From assembly GCA_024233785.1 (NCBI GenBank), contig JACKPD010000013.1, forward strand, positions 665-64,664: DNA of 64,000 nt, written 5' to 3'. This DNA comes from Spirochaetales bacterium. Lineage in GTDB: Bacteria > Spirochaetota > Spirochaetia > CADAEX01. Of the stretch, positions 4,580 to 59,417 are shown one piece after another. The position numbers were made by a program, and so were the translations under genes. Within the stretch, counting starts at the first letter, position 1. Every line of letters begins with the position of its first letter. The notes beneath the pieces were generated by a model. The model did not search any database, was not told the origin of the DNA, and was given only the letters and a program-made list of their open reading frames with translations.

Positions 4580-5566
4580 ATGAAAAAATTGTATATTGTA
4601 CTGTTGATATTATTATTATCAGCAACAATGGTTTTCGCAGGCGGCGCAAAAGAAGCACCCGCTGCTAAAGCTGAACCGGCAAAAGCTGCGGCTCCTGCAT
4701 TTCCTGAGAAACCGATAAAACTTGTTGTTTATCTTGCACCGGGCGGAGCAGGGGACATCCTTGCGAGAAAGTTCACAGATGTTGCTTCCAAATATTCAAA
4801 AGCTACTTTTGTAGTTGAGAACAAACCCGGAGCGGGCGGAATTGTAGCTCTCGAACATATCCGCGCCCAGGCTGCAGACGGCTATAACCTGATGTATGTA
4901 ACAAAATCAATTGTCTCCAAAGTAGCTACAACGGAAACAGATATTGACCTTAACAAGGAATATGAATGGATAGCCATGCTCCAGGTTGATCCTGAATGTG
5001 TTATTACAAATGTAAAAAACAAGGCACATACCTGGGAACAGATTTTTGAAGATTCTAAAGCCAAAAACGGAAACCAGCTCTGGCTCGGCCCGGCTGCAGG
5101 CGGGCTTGACCATGTAACTGCCCAGAAAATTTGGGCTTCCGCGGGAATGCAGGCTAAATGGGTTCCTTTTGACAGCGGCGCGAAAGCCATTGCGGCTCTT
5201 CTCGGACAGCAGGGTGTTGTATACGTAGGAAACCCGGCGGAAGTTAAGGGCAACCCTGATCTTAAGGTTGCGGCAATCTGCTATTCAGAAAGACTTCCTG
5301 AATTCAAGGATGTCCCGACATTCAAGGAACTTGGTGTAAACGGAGTTGAGAATGAGGTCATGTGGAGAGGTTTTGCAGTAAAGGCCGGAACACCTGCACC
5401 GGTTATTGCCTGGTATGAAGATCTGTTTGCCAAAGTTTCCAATGACGCTGACTGGAAGAAGACATATGAGTCAGACGGTATAGCTGTTGTAAACTGGAAA
5501 AAAGACAAGTTCAACAAGCTTGTTGCTGATGACCTTGCCGAGGCAAAGGCGGCAGCAAAAAAATAG
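4580..5566 (+). CDS. tctC: Tripartite tricarboxylate transporter substrate-binding protein (TctC/Bug family)
   Basis: Signal peptide, PGGAGD motif and a length of about 325 aa. It is followed by tctB and tctA. Confidence 0.9.
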   Translation: MKKLYIVLLILLLSATMVFAGGAKEAPAAKAEPAKAAAPAFPEKPIKLVVYLAPGGAGDILARKFTDVASKYSKATFVVENKPGAGGIVALEHIRAQAADGYNLMYVTKSIVSKVATTETDIDLNKEYEWIAMLQVDPECVITNVKNKAHTWEQIFEDSKAKNGNQLWLGPAAGGLDHVTAQKIWASAGMQAKWVPFDSGAKAIAALLGQQGVVYVGNPAEVKGNPDLKVAAICYSERLPEFKDVPTFKELGVNGVENEVMWRGFAVKAGTPAPVIAWYEDLFAKVSNDADWKKTYESDGIAVVNWKKDKFNKLVADDLAEAKAAAKK

Positions 5567-5665: not shown

Positions 5666-6229
5666 ATGGATACAATAAAATATTTCGGAAAAGGGCCTGG
5701 ACTATACATAATGGCATCAGTCCTTTTTTTCCTTTTTGCAGCGATTATTTTCGCAATTTACAAATCATCAAAAAAAGAATATTTCTGGAGACTTTCTATT
5801 CCTGTCTTTTTTATTATGACGGTACTCGGTTTTATGGTAATAGCCATGGGTCTTCCAGTGAAAGGTGATGAAGTCGGCCCCGCAATTGTTCCCGAACTGT
5901 GGATAACAGGTATAATATTGTTAAGCGTTTTAATAATAATAAGAACACTGTTCGGTCTGGATGAAAAAGACCCCGGCTGGGGAAGGGTAGGAGTAGTCGG
6001 CGCTTTTCTCGCTTTTACAATACTATATCTCTATATGATAATTTATATCGGTTATTATATTTCAACATTAATCTATCTTTCAGTCAGTATATATTCTCTT
6101 TCCTACCGTGATATAAAGGTTATCGCGGGGCTTTCATTAGGATGGATTCTGGTTTCATATGTGGCTTTTTACAGAATCCTTTATGTTCCCCTTCCGAAAG
6201 GAATACTGATAGAACGGATATTCGGATAA
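5666..6229 (+). CDS. tctB: Tripartite tricarboxylate transporter small membrane subunit (TctB family)
   Basis: 187 aa with 4-5 hydrophobic helices, located between tctC and tctA. Confidence 0.75.
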   Translation: MDTIKYFGKGPGLYIMASVLFFLFAAIIFAIYKSSKKEYFWRLSIPVFFIMTVLGFMVIAMGLPVKGDEVGPAIVPELWITGIILLSVLIIIRTLFGLDEKDPGWGRVGVVGAFLAFTILYLYMIIYIGYYISTLIYLSVSIYSLSYRDIKVIAGLSLGWILVSYVAFYRILYVPLPKGILIERIFG

Positions 6230-6242
6230 GGAGTACATTTTT

Positions 6243-7745
6243 ATGGATCTTTTAATTAATCTTTTCCAGGGTTTCGGATATCTTGTGGGATGGGAACCTG
6301 TTGTCGCCATGACTGTCGGTGTTATTCTGGGAATACTCGTAGGCGCTATGCCCGGGCTTTCCCCGTCAATGGGCGTTGCTCTTCTTGTTCCCTTTACCTA
6401 CAAAATGCCGCCCCAGATCGCGCTGATACTGCTTGTATCAATTTATATAGCTTCAAATTACGGCGGCTCAATTACAGCTGTTACTATAAATACCCCGGGA
6501 ACGCCGTCCGCAGTTGTTACAGCGTTTGACGGATACCCCCTTACACAGCAGGGAAGAGCTGGAGAGGCTCTCGGCATATCGCTTGTCGCGTCAACTGTGG
6601 GCGGTATAATCGGAACTATCATACTTATATTTTTCTCTGTTCCGCTTGCAAGTCTTGCTGTAAGGCTTCATCCTGCCGAATATTTCGCTCTTGCGATATT
6701 CGGGCTTACGACTGTAGCGTCGCTGGGCGGTAAAAACTGGCCAAAGGCTTTTATTGCCGCTTTACTGGGTCTCCTTATAAACACAATCGGGCTTGACCCC
6801 ATATCAGGAGTAAAAAGGTTCACATTCGGGACCTACCGCCTTTTTGACGGGTTTGCCCTTATCCCAGCCCTTATCGGGCTTTTCGCTCTGAGTGAGGTAT
6901 TTTCAAGACTTGAGGAGTTCAAATTTGATAAGGAAAAGATAGAGGCAGATATAAATAAAACAGTATGGCCCTCCTTTATTTATTACTGGAAAATGAAATT
7001 TACAATTATAAAAACCTCAATCATCGGCACTCTTATAGGGATATTCCCCGGAGCTGGCGCTACAATTGCTACCTTTATTGCATACGATTTTACAAAAAGG
7101 GGCAGTAAGGATCCTGACAGCTTCGGTAAAGGCAATCCGGAAGGGGTAGCTGCGGCCGAGGCTTCAAACTCGAGCTCAGTCGGCGGCGCGCTTGTTCCTC
7201 TTCTGGCCCTTGGTATCCCCGGAAGTGCTACTACCGCGGTCCTTGTCGGCGCGCTTATGATCCATGACCTCAATCCCGGCCCTCTCCTTTTTACGGAACG
7301 GCCTGACATTGTATATTCACTTTTCGCCTCCTGTCTTGTCGCGAACGGAATCATGCTTGCTCTCGGCCTCATGGGTTCGAGGCTCTGGATCAAGGTTACA
7401 GACATTCCCAAGACTGTTCTTTTTCCCTGTATTCTGGCGATTTCCATAATCGGCAGTTTCGCGGTAAATTATTCATTCTTTGATGTTGCTGTATGTATAG
7501 GATTCGGGGTTGCCGGCTGGATTTTGAAAAAATTTGATTATCCTGCGGCGCCTATCGTTCTGGGCATGGTGCTTGGAAATCTGGCTGAAACAAATTTCAG
7601 AAGGGCTGTAATAATGGGCGGTTATCCTGTATTTTTCGTCAGGCCGTTCAGCGTTTTACTTCTGCTTGTTTCAGCATTGTCACTGGCATATCCTTTTTAC
7701 CAGAGCTACAGAAAAAAGAAAAAATCTGCAGCTGCAGGTAAATAA
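6243..7745 (+). CDS. tctA: Tripartite tricarboxylate transporter large permease (TctA family)
   Basis: 500-aa polytopic membrane protein with N-terminal GFGYLVGWEPVVAMTVGVILGILVGAMPGLSPSMGVALLVPFTY, typical of TctA/DUF112. Confidence 0.9.
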   Translation: MDLLINLFQGFGYLVGWEPVVAMTVGVILGILVGAMPGLSPSMGVALLVPFTYKMPPQIALILLVSIYIASNYGGSITAVTINTPGTPSAVVTAFDGYPLTQQGRAGEALGISLVASTVGGIIGTIILIFFSVPLASLAVRLHPAEYFALAIFGLTTVASLGGKNWPKAFIAALLGLLINTIGLDPISGVKRFTFGTYRLFDGFALIPALIGLFALSEVFSRLEEFKFDKEKIEADINKTVWPSFIYYWKMKFTIIKTSIIGTLIGIFPGAGATIATFIAYDFTKRGSKDPDSFGKGNPEGVAAAEASNSSSVGGALVPLLALGIPGSATTAVLVGALMIHDLNPGPLLFTERPDIVYSLFASCLVANGIMLALGLMGSRLWIKVTDIPKTVLFPCILAISIIGSFAVNYSFFDVAVCIGFGVAGWILKKFDYPAAPIVLGMVLGNLAETNFRRAVIMGGYPVFFVRPFSVLLLLVSALSLAYPFYQSYRKKKKSAAAGK

Positions 7746-7775
7746 CAGGCTAGAGTATTTAAAACAATTTCCCCT

Positions 7776-7812
7776 GCCGTCCTGCGTTTATTGCAGGGCG
7801 GCTTTAATTTTT
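7776..7812 (+). terminator. Rho-independent terminator after tctA
   Basis: gccgtcctgc (7776-7785) pairs with gcagggcggc (7793-7802) with one mismatch, followed by tttaattttt. Confidence 0.7.
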
Positions 7813-37673: not shown

Positions 37674-37700
37674 ATACAGTAATAACATTTCTGTATATTG
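37670..37700. promoter_or_regulatory. 10-bp perfect inverted repeat overlapping the -10 box and the first start codon
   Basis: caatatacag (37670-37679) and ctgtatattg (37691-37700) with an 11-nt spacer. The left arm overlaps TACAAT and the right arm ends in the GTG start of the half-size hsdS. Confidence 0.4.
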
Positions 37701-38290
37701 TGGGGATTTGTTTGCATACAAAACTTAAAAACATTGCAACGGTGCAGATGGGATACTCATTCAGGTCCCGTCTCGAAGCCTCAGGAAGTGGGGCAATTGC
37801 GGTTATTCAGATGAAGGATCTGCTGGGTGACAACACGGTCGGCTGTGATGATTTGGTCAGGATTGATTTGGATGCCGTGAAAGAGCATCACCTCGCGCAA
37901 AGAGGCGATCTTGTATTCAGGTCCCGTGGGGCTCTGACTACGGCAGCGATTCTTCTTGAAGATCCGGGCAGGGCAGTTGTCGCCGCTCCTTTATTAAGAA
38001 TAAGAGTGAAAAAGCCGGACAAGGTTTTACCAGAGTATCTGAACTGGTACATCAGCCAGCGCGATGCCCAGATTTTTCTTACCAGCAGGGCCAAAGGCAC
38101 GGTTCAGAAAATGATCAGCAAGCAGGCGATAGAAGATCTGGAAGTGGTGCTGCCAGGTCTGGAAAAGCAAAAAAACATCCTGGATCTGGCATCACTGCTT
38201 GCACGGGAAAAAAAATTGCTTCAACAGATTTCAGATAAACGGGAACAATACATTTCATCAGTACTCATGCATTTTGCAAAAGGAGAATAA
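37700..38290 (+). CDS. hsdS: Type I R-M specificity subunit, half-size (single target-recognition domain)
   Basis: 196 aa with one TRD (KLKNIATVQMGYSFRS...) plus the conserved helical region LPGLEKQKNILDLASLLAREKKLLQQI. GTG start without an obvious SD. Confidence 0.75.
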   Translation: MGICLHTKLKNIATVQMGYSFRSRLEASGSGAIAVIQMKDLLGDNTVGCDDLVRIDLDAVKEHHLAQRGDLVFRSRGALTTAAILLEDPGRAVVAAPLLRIRVKKPDKVLPEYLNWYISQRDAQIFLTSRAKGTVQKMISKQAIEDLEVVLPGLEKQKNILDLASLLAREKKLLQQISDKREQYISSVLMHFAKGE

Positions 38291-38293
38291 AAC

Positions 38294-39858
<1,565 letters not shown>

Positions 39859-39862
<4 letters not shown>

Positions 39863-40710
39863 GTAACAAAGATATCGAAAGACAGTATCACCAGACATTT
39901 GAGGAACTTAAGAAAATTGGAGATAGCAATGCCGAATTTTGGTATGCGAGGGATATGCAGGTTACATTGGATTATTCCAGTTGGGACAAATTCAAGCGGG
40001 TAATACTAAAAGCAATCGCGGCTTGCGAAAACTCCGGTCAGACAGCCAGTAGCCATTTTTCCCAAGTGGGAAAAATGGTTCAGCTTGGATCCGGTAGTCA
40101 ACGTGAAATTGAGGATTACCGGCTCTCCCGCTACGCCTGCTATTTGATTGTACAGAATGGTGATCCCTCAAAGCCGGTTATAGCCAACGGACAGACCTAT
40201 TTTGCCATTCAGACCCGTCGACAGGAATTGGCCGACGACGAAGCCTTTCAGCGTTTGAAGGAAGATGAAAAACGCCTGTTTCTGCGTAATGAAATGAAGG
40301 AGCATAACAAGAAGCTCGTTGAAGCGGCCCAGCAGGCTGGAGTGGAGTCCAATCTGGATTTCGCCATCTTCCAGAACCACGGCTACAAAGGGCTTTACGG
40401 AGGACTTGATGCCAAGGGGATTCATGCCCGCAAAGGGTTGAAAAAGAGCCAGCAGATTCTGGATAACATGGGTAGCACTGAGATGGCCGCCAATCTCTTC
40501 CGAGCCACACAGACCGAAGAAAAACTCCGTCGGGAAAATATTCAGGGCAAAACCAGGGCCAATACAACCCATTTTGAAGTCGGAAAGAAAGTTCGAAAAA
40601 CCATTGAAGAACTGGGCGGCACCATGCCGGAAGACCTTCCAACACCGGATGAAGATTTGAAGAAGCTGGAAAAACGGACGCAAAAAAAGCTGGGATACTA
40701 CCACGAATGA
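39859..40710 (+). CDS. dinD: DNA-damage-inducible protein D homologue
   Basis: Long identical stretches to E. coli DinD as I remember it (LSRYACYL.VQNGDP.KPVIA.GQTYFAIQTRRQELADDEAF...EDEKRLFLRNE.KEHNK.LVEAAQQAGV...FAIFQNHGY.GLYGGLD). ATGA overlap with the hsdM stop. Confidence 0.85.
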
Positions 40711-40802
40711 ATATGGATAAACTCATATATTTTATAGGACCGCATAAACAAAATTCGCTGAAGCAATTATGGGCCGAGAAGCTCAGGGAGATTGAGAGGT
40801 GA
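40707..40802 (+). other. 31-codon mini-ORF carrying an hsdM C-terminal relic
   Basis: Encodes MNMDKLIYFIGPHKQNSLKQLWAEKLREIER*. Its ATG overlaps the dinD stop (ATGA) and its TGA overlaps the GTG start of the ORF6N gene (GTGA). The tail ...AEKLREIER resembles the HsdM tail ...MAGKLREIQR. Confidence 0.45.
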
Positions 40803-40806
40803 GTAA
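40778..40806 (+). repeat. Junction repeat J2
   Basis: gaagctcagggagattgagagGTGAgtaa. The first 16 nt are identical to J1, followed by 3 substitutions. Confidence 0.9.
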
Positions 40807-41695
40807 GGATAACGAAATCGTTTTATCAGATACCCTTCAAAAAATGATCTTTACCATTAGGGGGATCCAGGTGATGATCGATCGGGATTTGGCAGAGCTG
40901 TATCAAGTTGAAAATAAACGTCTCAATGAACAGGCCAAACGCAATATTACCCGATTTCCGGAATCTTTCAGATTTCAGCTTACGGATCAGGAAAAAAATG
41001 AACTGGTCGCAATTTGCGACCGGTTCGAGTCCTTGAAACATTCGACTGCAAATCCCTATGCATTCTCCGAACAGGGTGTATCCATGCTTTCTGCTGTTCT
41101 GCGTAGTGAAACTGCCATCAAGGTCAGTATTCAGATCATCAACGCCTTTGTTGATATGCGGCGATTCATTCAGAATAATGCCAATATTTTTACCAGACTG
41201 GATTCTGTGGAACGCCGTCAAATAGCTTTTGAATCAGAGACAGAAAAGAAGTTTGAAAAGGTGTTTCAAGCTCTCGGAGCAGGTGAGCCGCCTAAACAGG
41301 GCGTTTTTTATGATGGTCAGGTCTATGATGCCTATGCTTTTGTTGCTGACCTTATTCGCAAAGCAAAGAGCAGCCTCATTCTCATTGATAATTATGTTGA
41401 TGATTCGGTTCTGACTCTCCTCAGCAAGCGTAAAAATGGGGTCTCGGCAACCATCTACACAAAAGCTGTTTCCAGACAACTTGCACTGGACATCAAAAAA
41501 TATAATGAGCAATACTCACCCATCAAACTCGAAACGTTAGAAAAAGTTCACGACCGCTTTCTGATTATCGACGAAAAAGAGATTTACCACATTGGCGCTT
41601 CACTGAAAGACCTTGGTAAAAAATGGTTCGCCTTCTCTAAGTTTGAATCCGGGACTGTCGAAATGCTCAAAAAACTTGGAGGAACCCACGGATGA
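40799..41695 (+). CDS. ORF6N-domain protein with PLD-like (HxR-x4-D) C-terminal domain
   Basis: N-terminal IRGIQVMIDRDLAELYQVENKRLNEQAKRNITRFPESFRFQLT is the ORF6N/KilA-N-like DNA-binding domain. The C-terminal VHDRFLIIDEKEIYHIGASLKD resembles a PLD HKD motif with Lys replaced by Arg. Confidence 0.8.
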   Translation: MSKDNEIVLSDTLQKMIFTIRGIQVMIDRDLAELYQVENKRLNEQAKRNITRFPESFRFQLTDQEKNELVAICDRFESLKHSTANPYAFSEQGVSMLSAVLRSETAIKVSIQIINAFVDMRRFIQNNANIFTRLDSVERRQIAFESETEKKFEKVFQALGAGEPPKQGVFYDGQVYDAYAFVADLIRKAKSSLILIDNYVDDSVLTLLSKRKNGVSATIYTKAVSRQLALDIKKYNEQYSPIKLETLEKVHDRFLIIDEKEIYHIGASLKDLGKKWFAFSKFESGTVEMLKKLGGTHG

Positions 41696-41793
41696 ACACG
41701 AAAGTTAATGATGAATGTTCAGTGATGAGTGATGAATTAAAAAACAACTCAGCACTTCTCGCAGGTGCATGGCTCCAGGAGATTCAGCGATGA
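41692..41793 (+). other. 33-codon mini-ORF carrying an hsdM C-terminal relic
   Basis: Encodes MNTKVNDECSVMSDELKNNSALLAGAWLQEIQR*. Its ATG overlaps the ORF6N stop (ATGA) and its TGA overlaps the hsdS ATG (ATGA). Confidence 0.45.
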
Positions 41794-41795
41794 GT
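41773..41795 (+). repeat. Junction repeat J3
   Basis: ctccaggagattcagcgATGAgt. The 18 nt ggagattcagcgatgagt are identical to J1. Confidence 0.9.
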
Positions 41796-43025
41796 TTGAA
41801 GACAATAGACACTGCCTTTGAAGGTAATGCCATGCCAGTATTCAAAGAAGTCAAGTTGAAGGAGATTGTTACTGATAATTGTCTCGGGGGCAATTATCAG
41901 TGCGTTGAGTATGTTACACCACTTCCTGTAATAAAAATGGGCAACCTGGGTAGAGGAACAATAACTCTTGAAAAAATGGAGTATGTATCAGACGGAAAGA
42001 TCCTTTCTAATAGAGATGTACTCAAAAAAAAGGACATCCTCTTAAACACAAGAAATACACTCGATTTGGTCGGGAAAGTAGCTATGTGGCGAGGAGAACT
42101 CGAATATTCAGTGTTCAATTCAAACATAATGCGCATTACGTTCAGCACAAATGTTTTGAATGAATATATGAATTACTATTTCAATTCATATAGTGCATTG
42201 AAACAACTTAGATCGAGGGCGACAGGTACAACAAGCGTTGCTGCAATATATTGGAGGGATTGCCAAAATATAAGAATACCGCTCCCCTCACTGTCAGAGC
42301 AAAAAGCCATTGTCGCTCTTTTGTCTACTTGGGATATCGTCATAGAGAAAACCGAACGACTGGTTCAGACGAAGGAGCGGCAAAAGTTAGGTGAGCTTCA
42401 CTCTCGAATAAGCAGGAAAAAAGCTAACTCGACAATTGGCACTTTCGCCAAGCCTGTAGTTAGAAAGGTAGATAAACCAGAGGAATCCTACATTGCTTTA
42501 GGCATTAGAAGCCATTTCAAGGGAACATTCAAGAGACTCGTTGAAGATCCAAAAACCGTAAATATGGATTCGCTATTCAGGGTTAAAGAAAACGACTTGA
42601 TCGTTAATATAACCTTTGCATGGGAAGGTGCCATTGCGCTTGTGAAGAAAGAAGATGAGGAATGCTATGTCTCTCATCGTTTTCCGACATATGAAATAAA
42701 GAGGTCTAAGGCAGAGCCTTGTTTCATTAGGCAACTGATCATGTCGAGTCGGATGAAATACGACCTTTCAAATATTTCTCCCGGTGGTGCCGGACGCAAC
42801 AGAGTTCTTAACAAGAAAGATTTCTTGAAGATGCCAATATGGCTCCCAGATCTTGAGACCCAGAAAAATATCGGAGAATACCTTGGGGCAATTGATAATG
42901 AAATCGACCTTCTTAAACAGCTTGCAGAAAAATACAAAACCCAGAAACACGGCTTGATGCAGAAAATGCTTACCGGCGAATGGCGGATAAAACCGGAAAT
43001 CGTTAACCAATACATGGAGGCGTAA
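41790..43025 (+). CDS. hsdS: Type I R-M specificity subunit, full length (two TRDs)
   Basis: Two TRDs, each followed by the conserved motif LPSLSEQKAIVALL... / LPDLETQKNIGEYL.... Start set at ATG 41790 (ATGA coupling) rather than the track start 41769, which lies inside the hsdM-tail relic. Confidence 0.9.
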   Translation: MSLKTIDTAFEGNAMPVFKEVKLKEIVTDNCLGGNYQCVEYVTPLPVIKMGNLGRGTITLEKMEYVSDGKILSNRDVLKKKDILLNTRNTLDLVGKVAMWRGELEYSVFNSNIMRITFSTNVLNEYMNYYFNSYSALKQLRSRATGTTSVAAIYWRDCQNIRIPLPSLSEQKAIVALLSTWDIVIEKTERLVQTKERQKLGELHSRISRKKANSTIGTFAKPVVRKVDKPEESYIALGIRSHFKGTFKRLVEDPKTVNMDSLFRVKENDLIVNITFAWEGAIALVKKEDEECYVSHRFPTYEIKRSKAEPCFIRQLIMSSRMKYDLSNISPGGAGRNRVLNKKDFLKMPIWLPDLETQKNIGEYLGAIDNEIDLLKQLAEKYKTQKHGLMQKMLTGEWRIKPEIVNQYMEA

Positions 43026-43027
43026 TT

Positions 43028-43261
43028 ATGGCTAAAGGAAAAAATCAACACGTTGTAAAACATCCCGATGGATGGGCGGTAAAGGGCGAAGGTAACAGCA
43101 AAGCGACCAAAGTTACCCGCACACAGACGCAGGCCATTGAAAAGGCGGAGAACATCGCCAGAAACCAGAAGGCGGACACGAAAATTCATGGTGTGGATGG
43201 AAAGATCCGGGCAGGCAACAGCTACGGAAACGACCCGTGCCCACCTAAGGATAATAAGTAA
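43028..43261 (+). CDS. DUF2188-family small protein
   Basis: 77 aa. HVVKHPDGWAVKGEGNSKATKVTRTQTQAIEKAENIARNQKADTKIHGVDGKIR matches my memory of DUF2188. It starts 2 nt after the hsdS stop. Confidence 0.7.
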   Translation: MAKGKNQHVVKHPDGWAVKGEGNSKATKVTRTQTQAIEKAENIARNQKADTKIHGVDGKIRAGNSYGNDPCPPKDNK

Positions 43262-43268
43262 GGAGAAA

Positions 43269-44255
43269 ATGCCAATGAGTATGCGAAGCAGACGAATTGG
43301 TTCAATAAAAAACGAACTACTTAAAAAGTCTCGGGAAGCAGCTCTTGCGGCTGTCCAGATATTCAATAACCCAAATATCAGCTTTAAATCGGAATCCTAT
43401 GTAGTTCTGATGATTATTGCCTGGACTTACTTATTGCATGCTTACTACCGTAGTAAGAAAATCGAATACAGATACTTCGAAAAACTGGGTCAACGACGGA
43501 AGTTCGATACCACTAAAAATGGTGCATATAAGTACTGGGAACTCGAACGAAGTTTAAATGATTCAAAATCGCCTATCGACAAAGATACATCAAACAATCT
43601 GCGGTTTCTGATTGGTTTGCGCCATGAAATCGAACACCAGATGACCAGCAGGATCGATGATATTCTGAGCGCCCGCTTTCAAGCTTGTTGCCTAAACTAT
43701 AACGAATACATAAAGAAACTTTTCGGTGAAGATCTTGGAATTGAAAAGCACCTCTCTTTCAGCCTGCAATTTTCAACAATCTCAACAGAACAAAAAGAAT
43801 TGCTGGAGGATCATCCTGAGTTGCCTGCTAATATTCAGGGCTACATTCAAAGTTTTGATGCTAAATTATCTGATGAAGAATTCTCCAATCCTCATTATGC
43901 CTATCGAATACTCTTTATTCCAAAGACGGCCAATCGTATAGGCCAAGCAGACCGTGTGATCGAATTTGTGAAGAGTGATTCTCCTTTAGCTGAAGTTGTA
44001 AATAAAGAATATGCGGTAATCAAAGAGACCGAGAAAAGGAAGTTTCGGCCAAAACAGGTTGTGGATTTAATGAAGAAGGAGGGTTATCCCGGTTTTTCAA
44101 TCCACTACCATACACAGCTTTGGAAATCTTTGGATGCAAAGAAAACTGATAAAGGTTACGGTACGGTTGTAGCTGGAAAGGATTGGCTCTGGTATGAGTG
44201 TTGGATTGATGCGGTACGTGAGTATTGTCTTAAAAACAAGGAGCAATACTCATGA
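43269..44255 (+). CDS. DUF3644-like protein with R-x4-H (HEPN-like) motif
   Basis: 328 aa from ATG 43269, preceded by AAGGAG. N-terminal KKSREAALAAVQIFNNPNISFKSESYVVLMIIAWTYLLHAY is DUF3644-like as I recall it. RHEIEH is at codons 118-123 (43620-43637). The longer track ORF (43137) overlaps DUF2188 and is rejected. Confidence 0.7.
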   Translation: MPMSMRSRRIGSIKNELLKKSREAALAAVQIFNNPNISFKSESYVVLMIIAWTYLLHAYYRSKKIEYRYFEKLGQRRKFDTTKNGAYKYWELERSLNDSKSPIDKDTSNNLRFLIGLRHEIEHQMTSRIDDILSARFQACCLNYNEYIKKLFGEDLGIEKHLSFSLQFSTISTEQKELLEDHPELPANIQGYIQSFDAKLSDEEFSNPHYAYRILFIPKTANRIGQADRVIEFVKSDSPLAEVVNKEYAVIKETEKRKFRPKQVVDLMKKEGYPGFSIHYHTQLWKSLDAKKTDKGYGTVVAGKDWLWYECWIDAVREYCLKNKEQYS

Positions 44256-45586
44256 CCTCCGAATCCCAAAACATCGAGTGGAAACAATCCTGGCATGATG
44301 ACTACCTGAAATGGATCTGCGGGTTTGCCAATTCGCAGGGCGGACGAATTTTTATAGGTAAGGATAATGCTGGCAACGTCACCGGAGTGAAGAATGCCAG
44401 GAAGCTGCTGCAAGATTTACCGAACAAGATTCGCGACCAGTTGGGGTTGATGCCGCATATCAATCTGCAGATAGAAAACGGCAAAGCCTATCTGGAAATT
44501 ATTGTGGAGCCGTCGACGGTGCCGATTTCATTGCGTGGTTCCTATTACTGGCGGTCAGGTTCGGTAAAGCAGGAACTGAAAGGGCATGCTCTGACAGAAT
44601 TCCTTCTCAACAAGATGGGCAGGACCTGGGATAGGGTGATTGAGGAGAAAGCGACGCTGGATGACATCGACGATGCGACCATTGAACTATTTAAAAAAGA
44701 AGCGGTTACAGCCGGACGTCTGCCGGATATTTCAGGACTTTCTTCAGAAGAATTATTGAGAAAGTTGCACCTGCTTACTGAGAAAGGTCTGACCAATGCG
44801 GCAATCGTTCTTTTTGGTAAAGATCCAGGAGAATTTTATCCCAACCTGTTTGTGAAAATTGGCCGGTTTGGACTCAATATGGTGGATATGCGCTTTCAGG
44901 AGGTATGCGAGGGCAATGTATTTCAGCTCCTTCGTGGTGTGATGGAGCAGCTGGAAAAGAAATTCCTTATCAAACCAGTACGATTTGAAGGTTTTCGTCG
45001 AATTGAAGAACTGGAATATCCGGTTCCGGCATTGCGTGAAATGCTGCTCAATGCGCTGGTGCACCGCAACTACATGGGCAGCATGACTCAACTCCGGGTC
45101 ATGGATGATCGGCTTTCGTTGTGGAATGCCGGCACCCTGCCGCTCGAATTAACTGTTGAAAAACTATTTCAGACGCATAAGTCAATCCCCCGTAACCCGC
45201 TCATAGCAGAGGTTTGCTATCGGGTCGGCTATATTGATTCCTGGGGACGGGGAATTGAAAAAATCACCGATGCATGCAGGCATGCAGGACTGCCTGAACC
45301 TGTAATTGAAGAAAATTCAGGAGGTGTGGCGGTTGAGCTTCTGAAAAATGAGGTGAAAACGCCGGTCGAAACGCGGGTGAAAACGCCGGTCGAAACACGG
45401 GTGAAAACGCCAGAGGCCATTCTTCAGGTATTAAAAAATGATGCTTCGTTAACACTGGCAGAGGTAGGTTATCATATTGGAAAATCAGTCAGTGCGGTAG
45501 AACGTGCCGCCAAAAAATTGAGAGATCAGGGAAGATTGAAATATGTTGGCCCTCAAAAAGGCGGTCACTGGGAGGTGCGGGAATAA
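44252..45586 (+). CDS. AlbA_2 (Schlafen-like) + HATPase_c_4 + C-terminal wHTH protein (often mis-annotated as RecG-like)
   Basis: N-terminal ESQNIEWKQSWHDDYLKWICGFANSQGGRIFIGKDNAGNVTGV is the AlbA_2/divergent AAA_4 pattern. Central LREMLLNALVHRNY is HATPase_c_4-like. The C-terminal LTLAEVGYHIGKSVSAVERAAKKLRDQGRL is a wHTH. ATGA overlap with the upstream gene. Confidence 0.8.
   Translation: MTSESQNIEWKQSWHDDYLKWICGFANSQGGRIFIGKDNAGNVTGVKNARKLLQDLPNKIRDQLGLMPHINLQIENGKAYLEIIVEPSTVPISLRGSYYWRSGSVKQELKGHALTEFLLNKMGRTWDRVIEEKATLDDIDDATIELFKKEAVTAGRLPDISGLSSEELLRKLHLLTEKGLTNAAIVLFGKDPGEFYPNLFVKIGRFGLNMVDMRFQEVCEGNVFQLLRGVMEQLEKKFLIKPVRFEGFRRIEELEYPVPALREMLLNALVHRNYMGSMTQLRVMDDRLSLWNAGTLPLELTVEKLFQTHKSIPRNPLIAEVCYRVGYIDSWGRGIEKITDACRHAGLPEPVIEENSGGVAVELLKNEVKTPVETRVKTPVETRVKTPEAILQVLKNDASLTLAEVGYHIGKSVSAVERAAKKLRDQGRLKYVGPQKGGHWEVRE
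45353..45411 (+). repeat. In-frame 24-bp tandem repeat (about 2.5 copies) inside the AlbA_2 gene
   Basis: gtgaaaacgccggtcgaaacgcgg / gtgaaaacgccggtcgaaacacgg / gtgaaaacgcc, encoding VKTPVETR VKTPVETR VKTP. Confidence 0.95.
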
Positions 45587-45588
45587 TT

Positions 45589-48500
45589 ATGTATGATTTT
45601 GCAACTAACGAAAAACTGACAAGCCAGATACCGGCCCTGCAATTACTGATTACGATGGGCTATGAATACATCTCTCCGGAAGAAGCACTTGCAGAGCGTC
45701 AGGGGCGCTGTTCCAATGTCCTGCTGGAAAATATTCTGCGGACTCAGCTTAAAGAAATAAACAGCATTCGCTACAAAGGAAGTGAGTATCTCTTCAGCGA
45801 GGAGAATATTCAGTCGGCAATCCAGAAGCTGAAAAACATCAAATACGATGGACTGCTTAAGACCAACGAAGCCATTTACGATCTGATCACACTTGGGACG
45901 GCCATGGAGCAGACCATTGAAGGTGACTCGAAAAGCTTCAATATGAACTATGTCGACTGGAAGAATCCCGGCCGCAATAGATTTCATGTAACAGTAGAAT
46001 ACAGTGTTGAGAGGGCACGGAGTACAGAAACAGTCCGTCCTGACATTGTCCTGTTTGTCAATGGTATTCCATTTTGTGTGATGGAATGTAAAGCGCCGCA
46101 GATAGAGGTTGAACAGGCTGTTTCGCAATCGATCAGAAACCAGAGTGATGACTATATTCCCAAATTGTTCATTTATAGTCAAATGGTTTTGGCTTTGAAT
46201 AAAAACAGCGCCATATATGCTACAACCGGAACATCTGCAAAATTCTGGAGTGTTTGGAAAGAGCCTCTGATGGATAACGGGCAGCGTGAGTTTGAAAAAC
46301 TTGCAGCCGTGGTTAACAAACCGCTTGATGAGGCTGAAATTGCCTGTATTTCAAAAACACTTAATGTTAAACCTGAAATCTTTGGCTACAGCAGACTTGT
46401 AACCGCGCAGGACAAGGCTCTGTTCTGTCTCTGCCGCCCCGAAAGGCTTCTGGAGTTGGCATGGAAATTTACTGTATTTGATGGGGGTGTGAAAAAGATT
46501 GCCCGATATCAGCAGTATTTCGTCATCAAGTCCACACTGAAAAGGGTAAAACATTTTGACGTAACAGGTTCACGTAAAGGGGGCGTGATCTGGCATACTC
46601 AAGGTTCGGGGAAGTCCCTGACCATGGTGATGCTGGCCAGAAACCTGGCTTTGGATACTGAAATCCTGAATCCGCGAATCGTTCTTGTAACAGACCGTGA
46701 TGATCTGGATAAACAGTTGGGGAACACTTTTACCGCTTGCGGTCTTGAGGCGAATCGGGCAACATCGGGGAGAAACCTGCTGGAGCTGGTCGCTGAGAAG
46801 AAATCAGGTATTATCACAACCCTCATTCATAAGTTTGACAAGATGTATGCGATTGAGAAATATCGGGATGAGTCGCCAGATATCTTTATTTTAGTTGATG
46901 AGAGTCACCGGACCCAATTTGGTTCTTTTTCTGCAAGGATGAGACAGGTGTTTCCACATGCCTGTTATTTGGGATTTACCGGTACTCCCCTTTTGAAGAA
47001 GGAAAAGAATAACTTCGCCAAATTTGGTGAATTGGTTGAACCTCATTATTCCATTACTCAGGCTGTTGAAGACGGAGCTGTTGTGCCGCTCTTGTATGAG
47101 GGCAGGCATGTAGAGATGACTCAAAACAAAGAAGCTGTTGATCTATGGTTTGAACGGCATACGCAAGGGTTGAGCAGGGAACAGCAGGCGGACCTGAAAC
47201 GGAAATACGCACGGGCTGAAATGCTAAACAAGGCAGAACAGGTTATATACATGAGAGCCTTTGATATAAGTGAGCATTTCCAGTCCAACTGGCAGGGAAC
47301 AGGCTTCAAGGCCCAACTGGTGGCTCCGAATAAAGCTTCTGCCATTAAATATAACGCGTTCCTGAATGAAATTGGTAAGGTAAGTTCCGATGTTGTTATT
47401 TCACCTCCGGATGTACGTGAAGGTTATGAAGAAACCGATGATGAGCCAACCGATGAGGTTGTGAAATTCTGGCAAAAGATGATGAAGCGCTATGGAAGTG
47501 AAGAGGAATACACAAAGCAGCTGATCAATCAATTTAAACATGGGAATACACCGGATATCCTCATTGTCGTCAGTAAATTGTTGACAGGTTTCGATGCACC
47601 CCGAAATGCGGTTCTTTACTTATGCAGATTGCTTAAAGAGCATACACTGCTCCAGGCAATTGCGCGGGTCAATCGCATTTATGAAAACAAGGAGTTCGGT
47701 TTTATTGTCGATTATTCAAATGTTCTTGGTGAACTTGACAGGGCGCTCACCATGTACAGTGCGTTTGAAGGATTTGATGAATCCGACCTTGTCGGAACCC
47801 TTGCGTCCATTGACAGTGAAATTGAAAAGCTGCCCATCCGGTATTCCAGTCTTTGGGATTTATTTAAAACAGTTAAGTATTTATACGACGAAGAAGCCTA
47901 TGAACTATTTCTTGCCGATGATGAAATCAGGGAGGAATTCTATTACCGTCTTTCAGAGTTTGGGAAAAATCTCGCTATTGCTCTATCTTCTGAAAAATTC
48001 CTGAACCAAACCGATGTGAAAACGTTGTCCGGATACAAGGCAGACCTTCTGAAGTTTCAATCACTTAAAGCATCTGTCAAGTTAAGATATGCAGAAGCAA
48101 TTGATTACCGGGATTACGAGCCAAAGATTAAAAAGCTGCTGGATACCCACATACAAGCCAGTGAAGTTATTCAATTGAATGAACCGGTCAATATCTTTGA
48201 TGATAAATCGTTTATGTTAATCAAAGAAGAACGTGGAGTTTACGGAACCGGTAAAACTACCGGATCGAAAGCTGATACGATAGCTCATGCTACAAAGAAA
48301 GTTATCACCGAAAGGATAGATGAAGACCCTGCGTTCTACGAGAAGTTTTCCAAACTGATTCAGCAGGCGATCGAAGATTTCAGGGCAAAAAGGATATCCG
48401 ATCTGGATTATCTGAACAAGGTTGTGGACATTCGCAATAGGGTTGTTGGCAAGGTCCATGATGATATACCGGATAAACTTTCCGGTAATGAAGATGCGAT

Positions 48501-48789
48501 GGCCTATTTTGGAGTACTTAAACCTTTCCTGGAAGAACATGAACTTGGTGAAAACGATCTTTTATCCGCCTCGGCAGATACCGCAATAGCTATTCATGGT
48601 ATCCTGAAAAAATACAGGAAAGTTCATTTCTGGGATGATTATGACGCTCAAAAGCAAGCGGTTAACGAGATTGATGATTATTTTTATGATGAACTCAAGA
48701 CAGTAAGAGGCATTGAATTATCACTTGATCAGATGGATAAAATCATCGAAAAGGTACTGCAGGTTGCAAAACACAGGAGTTATAATTGA
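45589..48789 (+). CDS. hsdR: Type I restriction enzyme R subunit
   Basis: 1066 aa. PD-(D/E)xK nuclease (RPDIVLFVNG...MECK), SF2 helicase motifs (TQGSGKS, VDESHRTQ, GFTGTP, QAIARVNR) and a C-terminal helical domain. Confidence 0.95.
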   Translation: MYDFATNEKLTSQIPALQLLITMGYEYISPEEALAERQGRCSNVLLENILRTQLKEINSIRYKGSEYLFSEENIQSAIQKLKNIKYDGLLKTNEAIYDLITLGTAMEQTIEGDSKSFNMNYVDWKNPGRNRFHVTVEYSVERARSTETVRPDIVLFVNGIPFCVMECKAPQIEVEQAVSQSIRNQSDDYIPKLFIYSQMVLALNKNSAIYATTGTSAKFWSVWKEPLMDNGQREFEKLAAVVNKPLDEAEIACISKTLNVKPEIFGYSRLVTAQDKALFCLCRPERLLELAWKFTVFDGGVKKIARYQQYFVIKSTLKRVKHFDVTGSRKGGVIWHTQGSGKSLTMVMLARNLALDTEILNPRIVLVTDRDDLDKQLGNTFTACGLEANRATSGRNLLELVAEKKSGIITTLIHKFDKMYAIEKYRDESPDIFILVDESHRTQFGSFSARMRQVFPHACYLGFTGTPLLKKEKNNFAKFGELVEPHYSITQAVEDGAVVPLLYEGRHVEMTQNKEAVDLWFERHTQGLSREQQADLKRKYARAEMLNKAEQVIYMRAFDISEHFQSNWQGTGFKAQLVAPNKASAIKYNAFLNEIGKVSSDVVISPPDVREGYEETDDEPTDEVVKFWQKMMKRYGSEEEYTKQLINQFKHGNTPDILIVVSKLLTGFDAPRNAVLYLCRLLKEHTLLQAIARVNRIYENKEFGFIVDYSNVLGELDRALTMYSAFEGFDESDLVGTLASIDSEIEKLPIRYSSLWDLFKTVKYLYDEEAYELFLADDEIREEFYYRLSEFGKNLAIALSSEKFLNQTDVKTLSGYKADLLKFQSLKASVKLRYAEAIDYRDYEPKIKKLLDTHIQASEVIQLNEPVNIFDDKSFMLIKEERGVYGTGKTTGSKADTIAHATKKVITERIDEDPAFYEKFSKLIQQAIEDFRAKRISDLDYLNKVVDIRNRVVGKVHDDIPDKLSGNEDAMAYFGVLKPFLEEHELGENDLLSASADTAIAIHGILKKYRKVHFWDDYDAQKQAVNEIDDYFYDELKTVRGIELSLDQMDKIIEKVLQVAKHRSYN

Positions 48790-49514
48790 TGGCGGGATTA
48801 ATCCATATCATTAAACACTCTGTTATTTATGGGCAAAAAAGGATTGAATTCAGTTTGCTGTATTGTGATAGAAAAATGATCGAAATTGCAGTTCATCCTG
48901 ATAGTGCTGTTATTGTCAAAGTTCCTTTGCAAACAGATATCCTGCTAATAGAGAAAAAGATTATTAAAAAAGCCCGGTGGATTCTCAGTCAATTGAATTA
49001 TTTCAGGCAGTTTAATCCAAAGACACCTGATCGTTGTTATGTGAATGGTGAGACACATTTATATCTTGGGAAACAATACCGCTTAAAGTTAATCAAGGGA
49101 TCAGAAAATTCCGTCAAATTATCCCGCGGCTTTTTCCATATCACCAGCCAAAGCGAGCCGACTCCCGATACAGCCAAAAATCTTTTAAATCAATGGTACC
49201 TGGAAAAGGCACAGCTGCAATTTTCAGAAAGTATTGATCGCTGCTGGAAGGATTTCAATGATTTCGGAATTTGTAAGCCAAAATTATTGATTATGCGTAT
49301 GCAAAAAAGATGGGGAAGCCTTTCGGATAAAGGAACTGTCACCCTCAATACAGACCTTGTCAGGGCACCTAAAGCATGTATTGACTATGTTGTTACGCAT
49401 GAGCTGTGTCACCTGAAATATCATAATCATGGCACTGAATTTTATAAACTCCTCGAATCTGTCCTCCCGGGATGGGAAAAGGTAAAACACAAACTTGAGC
49501 TTAGTATGGCGTGA
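48789..49514 (+). CDS. DUF45/YgjP-like M48-type zinc metallopeptidase
   Basis: HELCHLKYHNH (HExxH) near the C-terminus. RWGS...G.V.LN..L motif. The start overlaps the hsdR stop (TGATG). Confidence 0.85.
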   Translation: MAGLIHIIKHSVIYGQKRIEFSLLYCDRKMIEIAVHPDSAVIVKVPLQTDILLIEKKIIKKARWILSQLNYFRQFNPKTPDRCYVNGETHLYLGKQYRLKLIKGSENSVKLSRGFFHITSQSEPTPDTAKNLLNQWYLEKAQLQFSESIDRCWKDFNDFGICKPKLLIMRMQKRWGSLSDKGTVTLNTDLVRAPKACIDYVVTHELCHLKYHNHGTEFYKLLESVLPGWEKVKHKLELSMA

Positions 49515-57482: not shown

Positions 57483-59417
57483 ATGGAAACTATCCGCCTT
57501 ACAACAGCGCAGGCAATAGTAAAATTTCTTGATAAACAGTTTGTTGAATTAAACGGAAAGGAAGAAAAATTCGTTAAAGGCTTTTTTATAATCCCCGGGC
57601 ACGGAAATGTTCTAGGCCTTGGACAGGCGCTTGAGGAATCCCCCGGAGACCTTGTTGTGCATCAGGGGAGAAACGAGCAGGGGATGGCCCACGCCGCAAT
57701 AGGTTTTGCCAAACAGAAGCACAGAAGGCAGATTTATGCCTGCACATCCTCAATCGGCCCGGGTGCGGCCAATATGGTCACAGCGGCGGGGACAGCTTCC
57801 GCCAACAGGATACCGGTGCTTTTTTTCCCCGGTGATACCTACGCCTCGAGGCAGCCTGATCCTGTGCTTCAGCAGGTAGAGCATTTTCACGACCTTAATA
57901 TTACGACTAACGATGCTTTCAAGGGTGTCTGCAGGTTCTGGGACAGGATTAACAGGCCCGAGCAGGCAATGACGTCGCTAATCAATGCCATGAGGGTGCT
58001 TACAGACCCGGCTGACACAGGAGCTGTGGCGATAGCGCTTCCCCAGGACGTGGAGGGGGAAGCCTACGATTACCCTGTCGATTTCTTCAAAAAAAGGGTC
58101 CACAGGATTGAAAGAAAGGCACCGACCGCTGAGATGCTTAAAGACGCTGTAGCTGTTTTCAAGGGAAAAAAGAAACCGCTTCTGATCTGCGGCGGCGGAG
58201 TGCGTTATTCGGAAGCACATGATGTATTTAAAAAGTTCGCGGAAAAACACAACATTCCATTCGCGGAAACTCAGGCCGGGAAAAGCGCGGTACCCTGGGA
58301 CCACTATCTTAACCTCGGCGGAATAGGCACGACCGGCGGGCTTGCGGCAAACCTGATCGCTAAAGAGGCAGACCTTGTTATCGGTGTAGGCACCAGGATG
58401 GGTGACTTTACAACCGCGTCCAAATGGCTTTTTCAAAACAGCGGGGTAGAGTTTTTGAATATCAATATCGCATCCTTTGACGCATACAAGATGGATGCCG
58501 TGCGGATAACAGCGGACGCAAAGGCCTCACTTGCCGCTCTTTCTAAGGAACTTGTAAAGGCAGGCTATAAATCCTCATGGAAAAATGAAATCAAGGACGC
58601 GCGGGACAAATGGTTTGCTGAACTTGACAGGCTTTTCAGTGTCGAGTACAACAGGAAAGGTTTTACTCCAGAAGTAGCCGGGCACAGGGACAGTATGCTT
58701 AAGGAATTCGCTGATGATTTCGGCTGCTGCCTGACTCAGACAAGGGTACTTGGAATCCTTGATGAGATGCTTGATGACAGCGCTATTGTCGTAGGTTCCT
58801 CAGGAAGCCTTCCCGGCGATATGCAGAGGGTGTGGAAACCCAAAAAGCCCAACACTTACCACATGGAATACGGCTACTCATGCATGGGATATGAAGTGTG
58901 CGCGTCACTCGGGGTAAAACTTGCAGAACCTTCAAGGGAAGTCTACTCATTTGTCGGAGACGGGTCATACATGATGCTCCATTCAGAACTTGTAACATCA
59001 GTACAGGAAGGGAAAAAAATCAATATCCTTCTTTTTGACAATACCTCTTTCGGTTGTATAAACAACCTGCAGATGGAAAACGGACAGGGAAGCTTCATGA
59101 CAGAGTTCAGGTACAGGGATTCGAAGTCAGGCAAACTTGACGGAAAGATTGTCCCTGTTGATTTCGCGATGAACGCCGCTGCCTATGGATGCAAGACCTA
59201 CACAGTGAAAAATGAAGAAGAACTAAGGGAAGCGATAAAGGATTCAAAGAAACAGAAGGTTTCTACCCTTATCGACATCAAGGTATTCCCGAAGACCATG
59301 ACACACGGATATGAGGGATTCTGGAGAGTCGGAAGTTCTGAAGCTGCCGTGAACAAGAAGATTGTAAGAAAAAATACAGAGATGAAAAAAGAGCTTGATA
59401 AAGCCAGAAGATATTAA
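57483..59417 (+). CDS. iolD: 3D-(3,5/4)-trihydroxycyclohexane-1,2-dione acylhydrolase (TPP-dependent)
   Basis: N-terminal [17 protein letters not shown] resembles B. subtilis IolD. TPP-binding GDGSYMM...N motif. 644 aa. Confidence 0.9.

Follow-up and report, generated by a model that had tools for sequence, protein, structure and literature searches.

In EcoKI, a restriction-modification (RM) system of Type I, hsdM and hsdS overlap by one nucleotide, and translational coupling of the two genes is established (PMC3510504). The 64-kb stretch of Spirochaetales DNA analyzed here (contig JACKPD010000013.1; hereafter the window) carries a Type I operon of eleven genes, all on one strand, in which the hsdM 3' end likewise overlaps the next start codon (ATGA) and carries the ribosome-binding site (RBS); it is this element that has been copied. 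Unlike EcoKI, which has one such junction and no passenger genes, the window has three junctions, two of them detached from hsdM and reached via miniature open reading frames (mini-ORFs).

Defence genes have been found embedded in Type I RM, BREX, DISARM and Hma systems, a pattern described as 'guilt by embedding' (bioRxiv 10.1101/2024.01.29.577857), and further embedded cases include TgvAB in Vibrio cholerae (PMC11411939) and PrrC. As in such catalogues, the passengers of the window belong to listed candidate families (PDC-S13, PDC-S05, PDC-S16 and PDC-S19; PADLOC matches with E-values of 1e-35 to 1e-167) and are oriented as their host operon. Unlike the embedded-gene studies, which catalogue the genes and test them for defence, the window adds relics of the hsdM tail and bridging ORFs, neither of which is described there. 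The words 'recombination', 'hotspot' and 'translational' are absent from the main text of the guilt-by-embedding study, where only a 'genomic sink' idea is offered for the origin of embedding (bioRxiv 10.1101/2024.01.29.577857), and our literature search returned no paper combining hsdM with ORF6N. Nesting inside restriction and related systems now guides the discovery of immune genes; how passengers enter without breaking the host operon is a mechanism so far not worked out.

Islands that integrate into the 3' ends of tRNA, tmRNA or protein-coding genes leave displaced gene ends behind as direct repeats (attL/attR), including through tandem accretion. At this locus, as at such islands, incoming DNA would restore the 3' end of its target while the old end persists downstream as a partial direct repeat, giving serial relics, and partial direct repeats of the hsdM 3' end do flank the inserts. 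Unlike at integrase targets, we found neither an integrase nor a fixed crossover core, relic length varies, and the relic doubles as the RBS and start of the next gene. A second parallel is provided by the PeSL mobile regulatory cassettes, which mediate modular shuffling in T4-type phages (PMC2839356, PMC4122927); there too, short expression signals repeated between unrelated genes constitute portable homology for the gain, loss or swapping of modules. PeSL elements are promoter and terminator stem-loops of phage hyperplastic regions, however, whereas the repeat in the window is a coding gene end with an RBS and start, set in a cellular defence operon. Integrase-displaced gene ends and PeSL cassettes are the closest mechanistic analogues. 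Integron arrays resemble the operon in their co-oriented, promoterless cassettes, repeated boundaries and need for upstream expression signals, but the window has no IntI and no attC-like folded sites, its boundaries being gene-end relics and solo terminal repeats.

Three copies of the hsdM 3' end, each with a Shine-Dalgarno sequence and an ATGA-type stop/start overlap, are present in the window (Table 1), as the preliminary description of this DNA had reported. A repeat search groups the copies as one family of 35 nucleotides (nt), with copies 2 and 3 showing 89% and 69% identity to copy 1, and a 23-nt pattern allowing up to three mismatches matched exactly three sites on the two strands of the window and none in 100 shuffles. 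Copy 1 (...gaagctcagggagattcagcgATGAgt at 39838-39866) is the live end of hsdM, whose stop overlaps the dinD start and which holds the Shine-Dalgarno sequence within the gene (cagggagattcagcgATGAgt at 39845-39864). Copy 2 (gaagctcagggagattgagagGTGAgt at 40778-40806) aligns to the family hsdM consensus over 31 nt, with 27/31 positions identical, and copy 3 (ctccaggagattcagcgATGAgt at 41773-41795) over 22 nt, with 21/22 identical. The last 20-30 nt of hsdM hold both an RBS (AAGGAG) and, through the ATGA overlap, the start of the next gene, and copies 2 and 3 are therefore displaced hsdM ends kept as the initiation regions of ORF6N and hsdS. We consider it probable that these tails were pushed downstream by the insertion of further modules and that the mini-ORFs leading to them serve as translation relays.

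Each mini-ORF begins on the stop of the preceding gene and ends on the start of the following one. The mini-ORF1 ATG overlaps the dinD TGA (40707-40710) and its TGA the ORF6N GTG (40799); the mini-ORF2 ATG overlaps the ORF6N TGA (41692-41695) and its TGA the hsdS ATG (41790), so that the positions given earlier for this chain of overlaps stand. Shuffled linkers are bridged by chance in 1.8% (mini-ORF1) and 1.6% (mini-ORF2) of trials. Two of the tail copies had also been described as surviving in the form of mini-ORFs; homology to hsdM is limited to the terminal 31 nt of mini-ORF1 and 22 nt of mini-ORF2, and the 5' parts are remnants of other small cassettes. The mini-ORF1 linker is homologous to a dinD-to-hsdS linker in a related locus (L090; loci of the comparison set are cited by such numbers), and both mini-ORFs start within a 22-nt motif described below. 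Within mini-ORF2, positions 41705-41756 share 91% identity with linkers in L098 (11557-11603, over 47 nt) and L094, and 89% identity with L098 14116-14150, the start of an intact 23S_rRNA_IVP gene. The tail, 22-nt and IVP matches thus show each mini-ORF to be a chimera, in which cassette-end remnants are joined to an hsdM relic, rather than a conserved protein.

For comparison, we collected 80 loci by similarity to the ORF6N protein and 80 by similarity to HsdM (62-92% identity). Nearly all HsdM-fetched loci share one layout, namely a half-size hsdS, hsdM, variable genes, hsdS, variable genes and hsdR, and in this family hsdM ends in ..VRVKMAEKLKEIQR and a stop, with AAGGAG and the ATGA overlap. 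A matrix built from the last 21 nt of hsdM, scanned over both strands of 83 same-family loci (0.95 Mb), recovered 35 true hsdM ends and 13 further copies on the coding strand. These 13 lie 940-2750 nt 3' of hsdM, and each ends in an ATGA or GTGA that opens an ORF of 188-424 amino acids; the genes served are hsdS (eight times), ORF6N, dinD, one KilA-N gene and one unknown gene. The opposite strand gave four matches, all at or below 15.5 bits, and above 20 bits outside hsdM there were 11 coding-strand matches against none on the opposite strand (P=5e-4). Two extra relics, located 5' of KilA-N/Bro-N genes, end in a TAATG overlap. Tail relics are thus general, a point on which the preliminary description had proposed a check, and occur both in this family and in others (see below).

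Aligned to the consensus, relics measure 16, 22, 22, 22, 31, 33, 33, 37, 44, 61, 62 and ~82 nt (16-85 nt overall), and all share a common right end at the stop. The longest (L087, 61 nt; L111, 62 nt; L098, ~82 nt) follow the HsdM C-terminus codon by codon, the L098 relic encoding EKELAEVRVKMSEKMKEIPR before its stop. The length of these matches bears on the proposal that each gene independently evolved the same Shine-Dalgarno sequence, spacer and ATGA, with no descent from hsdM. The invariant core, AGGAGATT-N6-ATGA, is exactly an RBS plus start codon, as that proposal would have it, but similarity continues well past the RBS in copy 2 and in the three longest relics, where it reaches 61-85 nt, and the duplications in other HsdM families run to 94-144 nt.

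The tails also record which gene they once preceded. Relics before hsdS match the tails of passenger-free loci (L095, L088, L086, L089) at 23-30/33 positions, versus merely 10-24/33 for the current hsdM tail of their own locus. The tail ..KLKEIQR-stop with ATGA precedes hsdS, whereas tails three codons longer (..QINRGDA, ..QIQRGDS or ..QIQRKDS and a stop, with a TAATGG or TGATGG junction) always stand before Bro-N or KilA-N genes, either live (L087, L092, L100, L111, L115, L129) or as relics behind another passenger (L094, L115). A RhuM-like identity considered for the genes after the extended tails was rejected, Pfam assigning them to KilA-N and Bro-N. Direct junctions of hsdM with the same passenger types also occur: in L008 and L136, ORF6N starts on the ATGA of hsdM, and in L005, L097 and L125 the two genes are separated by 7-46 nt counted from the hsdM stop. 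For dinD, L109 and L135 show it directly after hsdM, and L091 apparently does too, although its contig ends 89 nt past the hsdM stop. In its C-terminal half, the window's hsdS shares 90% identity with that of L085, where hsdS directly follows hsdM. The direct hsdM-ORF6N and hsdM-dinD loci, the co-variation of tail and gene, and the closeness of relics to passenger-free tails together support the earlier suggestion that each module once followed an hsdM gene. As for the convergent origin of RBSs raised above, the reappearance of the three-codon-longer tails as relics is a further point against it; the long relics show the copies to be gene-end remnants and so contradict that proposal, to which we give almost no credence.

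Parts of the window's own arrangement can be found elsewhere. Its dinD-linker-relic module is homologous to that of L090, where the relic serves hsdS, and its module of linker, short relic and hsdS is common to L115 and L129, the linker and short relic standing before dinD in L132; a single exchange that joined a relic tail to an ORF6N-bearing live tail could therefore yield the window order, and may have done so. The shortened variant of copy 3 is likewise present in L115 and L129, and this relic is an old variant common to these loci rather than a local copy. Compared with L094 and L098, the relic region of copy 3 lacks a net 9 nt, a difference that keeps the reading frame; an '8-nt deletion' considered for copy 3 was ruled out by alignment with five homologous linkers. 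A Met codon inherited from the tail (ATG 41769) also opens the hsdS frame, owing to the shortening of the relic, and would give a possible 7-codon N-terminal extension (41769-41792); this ATG is without a good Shine-Dalgarno sequence and is not conserved in L115/L129, and ATG 41790 has a well-spaced AGGAG.

Duplications of the hsdM end around ORF6N recur in other HsdM families, measuring 33 nt in L001, 94 nt in L003 (~84% identity), 127 nt in L047 and 144 nt in L050 (~95% identity), and each duplicate ends at a stop/start junction. At L050 (5008-7804), the last 144 nt of hsdM (end 5011) are repeated at ~95% right before an intact ORF6N (6956-7804), and a decayed ORF6N fragment (6093-6377) lies 5' of the intact gene; the locus may have undergone tandem duplication followed by decay of one ORF6N copy. 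A search of PLSDB with ORF6N returned one Type I context, on the finished plasmid pTS1 of cultured Treponema saccharophilum (L166). There, ORF6N lies between a small helix-turn-helix gene and hsdS and is flanked by a 22/25 direct repeat that comprises an RBS and start junction (GGAGAATTGAGAA(T)GGAAAAC at 4930-4965 and 5865-5900). The pTS1 Type I locus contains no hsdM relic, and its repeat embodies the same principle with a different upstream gene end.

Across the family, 12 of the 14 relic linkers contain an ATG, placed -10 to +4 nt from the upstream stop, that opens a frame of 16-59 codons closing on the downstream start, whereas shuffled linkers are bridged in 0.2-7% of trials each. Seven of nine conservatively defined lineages are bridged (P about 4e-11). 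A control drawn from other gaps of 40-220 nt within the same operons gave 5/36 bridged against 11/13 for relic gaps (P=9e-6), and a bridging frame is maintained across six homologous linkers even though they differ greatly in length (bridging ORFs of 30 to 59 codons). Initiation signals are preserved as well: AGGAG and the overlapping start were kept in 11/11 relics tested, compared with a Shine-Dalgarno sequence in 11/27 live tails that are uncoupled from the next gene (P=6e-4). Together, the bridging and Shine-Dalgarno statistics support selection for uninterrupted translation across the relic gaps, and so lend indirect support to the claim that the tails were retained for coupled translation. 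Re-initiation at the next start, avoidance of Rho-dependent polarity and protection of the mRNA are candidate benefits that would fit these patterns equally. Relic-free gaps can also be bridged, as at L088 5956-6006, L099 1947-2048, L139 1746-1829 and L098 16927-17022, and the 5/36 frequency, above the ~2% of shuffles, is a hint that these operons may be under pressure to keep translation continuous in general.

Taken together, we envisage a mobile unit that would consist of an hsdM 3' end and the gene downstream of it. Such a unit would enter a resident locus through one exchange in the conserved body or tail of hsdM and a second joint 5' of the resident tail, so that hsdM acquires its end from the incoming piece while the previous one is shifted downstream together with the gene it serves; repeated insertions would stack passengers, with one relic per event. 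Because the relics differ in where they end on the left, the joints there were probably illegitimate or based on microhomology, while the right end would be shared because the RBS and start must be kept. Two tail copies would then act as direct repeats through which homologous recombination could add, swap or delete passengers. The mini-ORFs would be relays rather than proteins. Presumably the remnants stay in a single open frame since downstream translation would be uncoupled by 85-180 nt of untranslated gap; such a gap might also expose the mRNA to polarity. The arrangement of copy 1, in which the hsdM stop overlaps the next start and a Shine-Dalgarno sequence lies within hsdM, recurs in at least 20 family loci in which hsdS directly follows hsdM.

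If this account is right, the relics would be a footprint of insertions from which old and new ends and the order of passenger arrival could be read, and operon integrity would be kept by a module-borne gene end with its RBS together with short translated frames over the scars. Embedded cassettes and their limits could then be located simply by searching the coding strand for a second copy of the hsdM 3' end, and tail copies would be hotspots of defence-gene gain and loss within populations. The preliminary description had named the hsdM/hsdS junction as a hotspot for cassette insertion; passengers and relics are indeed found there, but the hsdS-hsdR interval is equally variable.

Several observations weigh against the account of displaced tails and relays. 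A relic precedes hsdS in only 8-9 of the 29 passenger-bearing family loci, and in 20/29 hsdS is coupled to the passenger's own end without any relic, for example by a dinD ending in ..QKKLxGx, a stop and ATGA. No bridging ORF accompanies the relics of L001, L003, L047 and L050 or, within the family, those at L115 11414 and L147. Many relic linkers are homologous, so independent events number fewer than 14; the grouping into nine lineages is a judgement, and the shuffle null ignores the constraint imposed by the overlapping upstream coding end. The comparison loci are mostly metagenomes and metagenome-assembled genomes, in which gene starts are inferred. Within the window, copy 2 is as near to its own locus's tail as to any other (27/33), and a local duplication could be its source. 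The route of recombination might be homology-anchored illegitimate joining, unequal exchange or circle integration, and translation of the mini-ORFs, like a polar effect on downstream genes, is deduced from sequence.

A broader version of the proposal, which we regard as tentative, holds that the passengers form a recombinase-free cassette system, bounded on the left by the portable hsdM tail and on the right by the 22-nt stop/start motif. Both joints would serve as homology arms, by which defence genes are stacked, swapped or deleted across phyla, and as translational couplers, with the mini-ORFs kept by selection as relays.

The main rival that remains concerns the relay alone: the tails would be true rearrangement relics, while the mini-ORFs have no role, being open because they were stitched from former coding pieces, and the downstream genes initiate independently. 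The well-spaced AGGAG in each relic could drive such initiation, and the relics lacking a bridging ORF and the 20 loci that do without a relic point the same way. Against this stand the excess of bridged relic gaps over other gaps of the same operons, the rarity of bridging in shuffles, the single frame held by linkers built from three unrelated remnants despite length differences of tens of nt, and the start of the bridging ORFs exactly on the upstream stop. On balance, we consider neutral scars unlikely, and retain relays as the preferred reading of the mini-ORFs.

Far less probable is a site-specific system of the integron or integrase-island kind, in which the tails or the 22-nt motif would be the attachment sites of a recombinase. 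The operon has the look of an integron array (one orientation, no promoters, repeated boundaries), it resembles the repeated displaced gene ends at integrase targets, and some small passengers are flanked by inverted repeats of 30-39 nt. No integrase, transposase or recombinase was found, however, among the operon ORFs or the flanking ORFs between 34.6 and 56.4 kb (~8 kb each side), and left ends varying over 16-85 nt misfit a fixed crossover point. Neither linker of the window has a significant fold, their scores (z = 0.39, 0.05) being no better than those of shuffles; a modest hairpin (z = -1.6) was seen only for L094, where it forms from inverted repeats of a cassette that the window has lost by deletion, and an Rfam search (E<=1) over 37.4-49 kb returned nothing relevant. 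The null folds and the empty Rfam search likewise led us to reject an RNA element in the linkers. Least credible of all is that the mini-ORFs are functional micro-proteins, such as HsdM C-terminal mimics modulating HsdS assembly: their peptides end in the HsdM C-terminal motif (..KLxEIxR) and mini-ORF2 was predicted as a gene in two independent read-set assemblies, but length ranges from 16 to 59 codons, and linkers of different types, built from cassette remnants, have no sequence in common apart from the relic.

The 22-nt motif in which the mini-ORFs start (GGAACCACGAATGAACACGAAT) occurs 22 times in 1.76 Mb of loci, at 40697-40718 and 41682-41703 in the window and at 20 sites elsewhere, with coding-strand copies mostly at a gene end or right after an hsdM or half-size hsdS stop. 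The window otherwise contains one weak reverse match near 58266, and with only three tail sites and two motif sites in 64 kb, we rejected the idea that either pattern is a genome-wide repeat. In L092 and L102, the motif is the terminal inverted repeat of a small PDDEXK_3/GxxExxY cassette, and the ATG that starts the mini-ORFs is there the start codon of the GxxExxY gene; as a solo element, it supplies the last codons (..GNHE), stop and ATGA overlap of unrelated passengers. Intact terminal inverted repeats around a single small gene are found in related loci, the window keeping solo or partial ends only. Small genes so flanked, encoding PDDEXK_3/GxxExxY or 23S-rRNA IVP proteins, lie at L092 280-706 (repeat of 30 nt, 90%), L102 1368-1830 (29 nt, 79%), L094 3681-4102 (39 nt, 79%) and L098 14107-14559 (24 nt, 83%), and they have the appearance of very small mobile cassettes that lack a transposase. 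The flanks in L092 hint at a short duplication of the half-size hsdS end, with ambiguous boundaries; the L092 GxxExxY cassette has no match among PLSDB plasmids, and our literature search found nothing on mobility of GxxExxY or IVP cassettes.

Table 1. Genes, hsdM-tail copies, mini-ORFs and cassette remnants of the Type I operon, with positions in the window
Feature	Position	Strand	Remarks
Half-size hsdS (196 aa, amino acids)	37700..38290	+	PF01420; PADLOC Specificity_I; directly 5' of hsdM
hsdM, Type I methyltransferase subunit	38294..39862	+	PF02384, PF12161; TIGR00497, 297 bits
Copy 1, live hsdM tail (..MAGKLREIQR-stop) and dinD start	39832..39866	+	AGGGAG and ATGA overlap; tail matrix 42 bits
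dinD passenger, Bro-N N-terminus	39859..40710	+	NF008573, 470 bits; PF02498; PADLOC PDC-S13
Solo 22-nt terminal repeat, actaCCACGAATGAATatggat	40697..40718	+	dinD last codons and stop, mini-ORF1 ATG
Mini-ORF1, 31 codons, MNMDKLIYFIGPHKQNSLKQLWAEKLREIER-stop	40707..40802	+	dinD stop to ORF6N start
Copy 2, probable displaced tail relic (WAEKLREIER-stop)	40772..40806	+	AGGGAG and GTGA serve ORF6N; 35.8 bits
ORF6N-domain passenger	40799..41695	+	PF10543; PADLOC PDC-S05
Second solo 22-nt terminal repeat, gaacCCACGGATGAACacgaaa	41682..41703	+	ORF6N stop, mini-ORF2 ATG
Mini-ORF2, 33 codons, MNTKVNDECSVMSDELKNNSALLAGAWLQEIQR-stop	41692..41793	+	ORF6N stop to hsdS start
23S-rRNA-IVP (four-helix-bundle) cassette remnant	41705..41756	+	5' inverted-repeat end and first codons; PF05635
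Copy 3, probable displaced tail relic (..AWLQEIQR-stop)	41763..41797	+	AGGAG and ATGA serve hsdS; 30.1 bits
hsdS, full-length specificity subunit	41790..43025	+	PF01420 twice
DUF2188 gene	43028..43261	+	PADLOC PDC-S16
DUF3644 gene	43269..44255	+	PADLOC PDC-S19
Schlafen AlbA_2 / ATPase-like gene	44252..45586	+	PF04326, PF13749
hsdR	45589..48789	+	TIGR00348
YgjP-like peptidase gene	48786..49514	+	PF01863

The operon encodes HsdM, HsdS and HsdR in the same orientation, as assigned with Pfam and NCBIfam, and is flanked by housekeeping genes. Its non-hsd genes within these bounds, all on the same strand, form two groups: dinD and ORF6N between hsdM and hsdS, and a second, closely packed block of three genes, DUF2188, DUF3644 and Schlafen-like, between hsdS and hsdR (43028-45586). 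A half-size hsdS with one target-recognition domain lies 5' of hsdM in most of the 80 related loci (L081-L160), and these systems therefore hold one half-size and one full hsdS. Homologues of the ORF6N passenger have an MS(K/E)N start in common. The dinD end lies directly on the hsdS ATGA in several related loci, and the first 269 of the 717 positions of PADLOC PDLC03083, which is labelled a Type I specificity subunit, align with DinD (E=3.5e-120), so that DinD-HsdS fusion proteins evidently occur elsewhere. The Schlafen/AlbA_2-like gene contains, toward its 3' end, approximately five tandem units of a 12-nt repeat (GGTGAAAACGCC/GGTCGAAACGCG) at positions 45352-45411.

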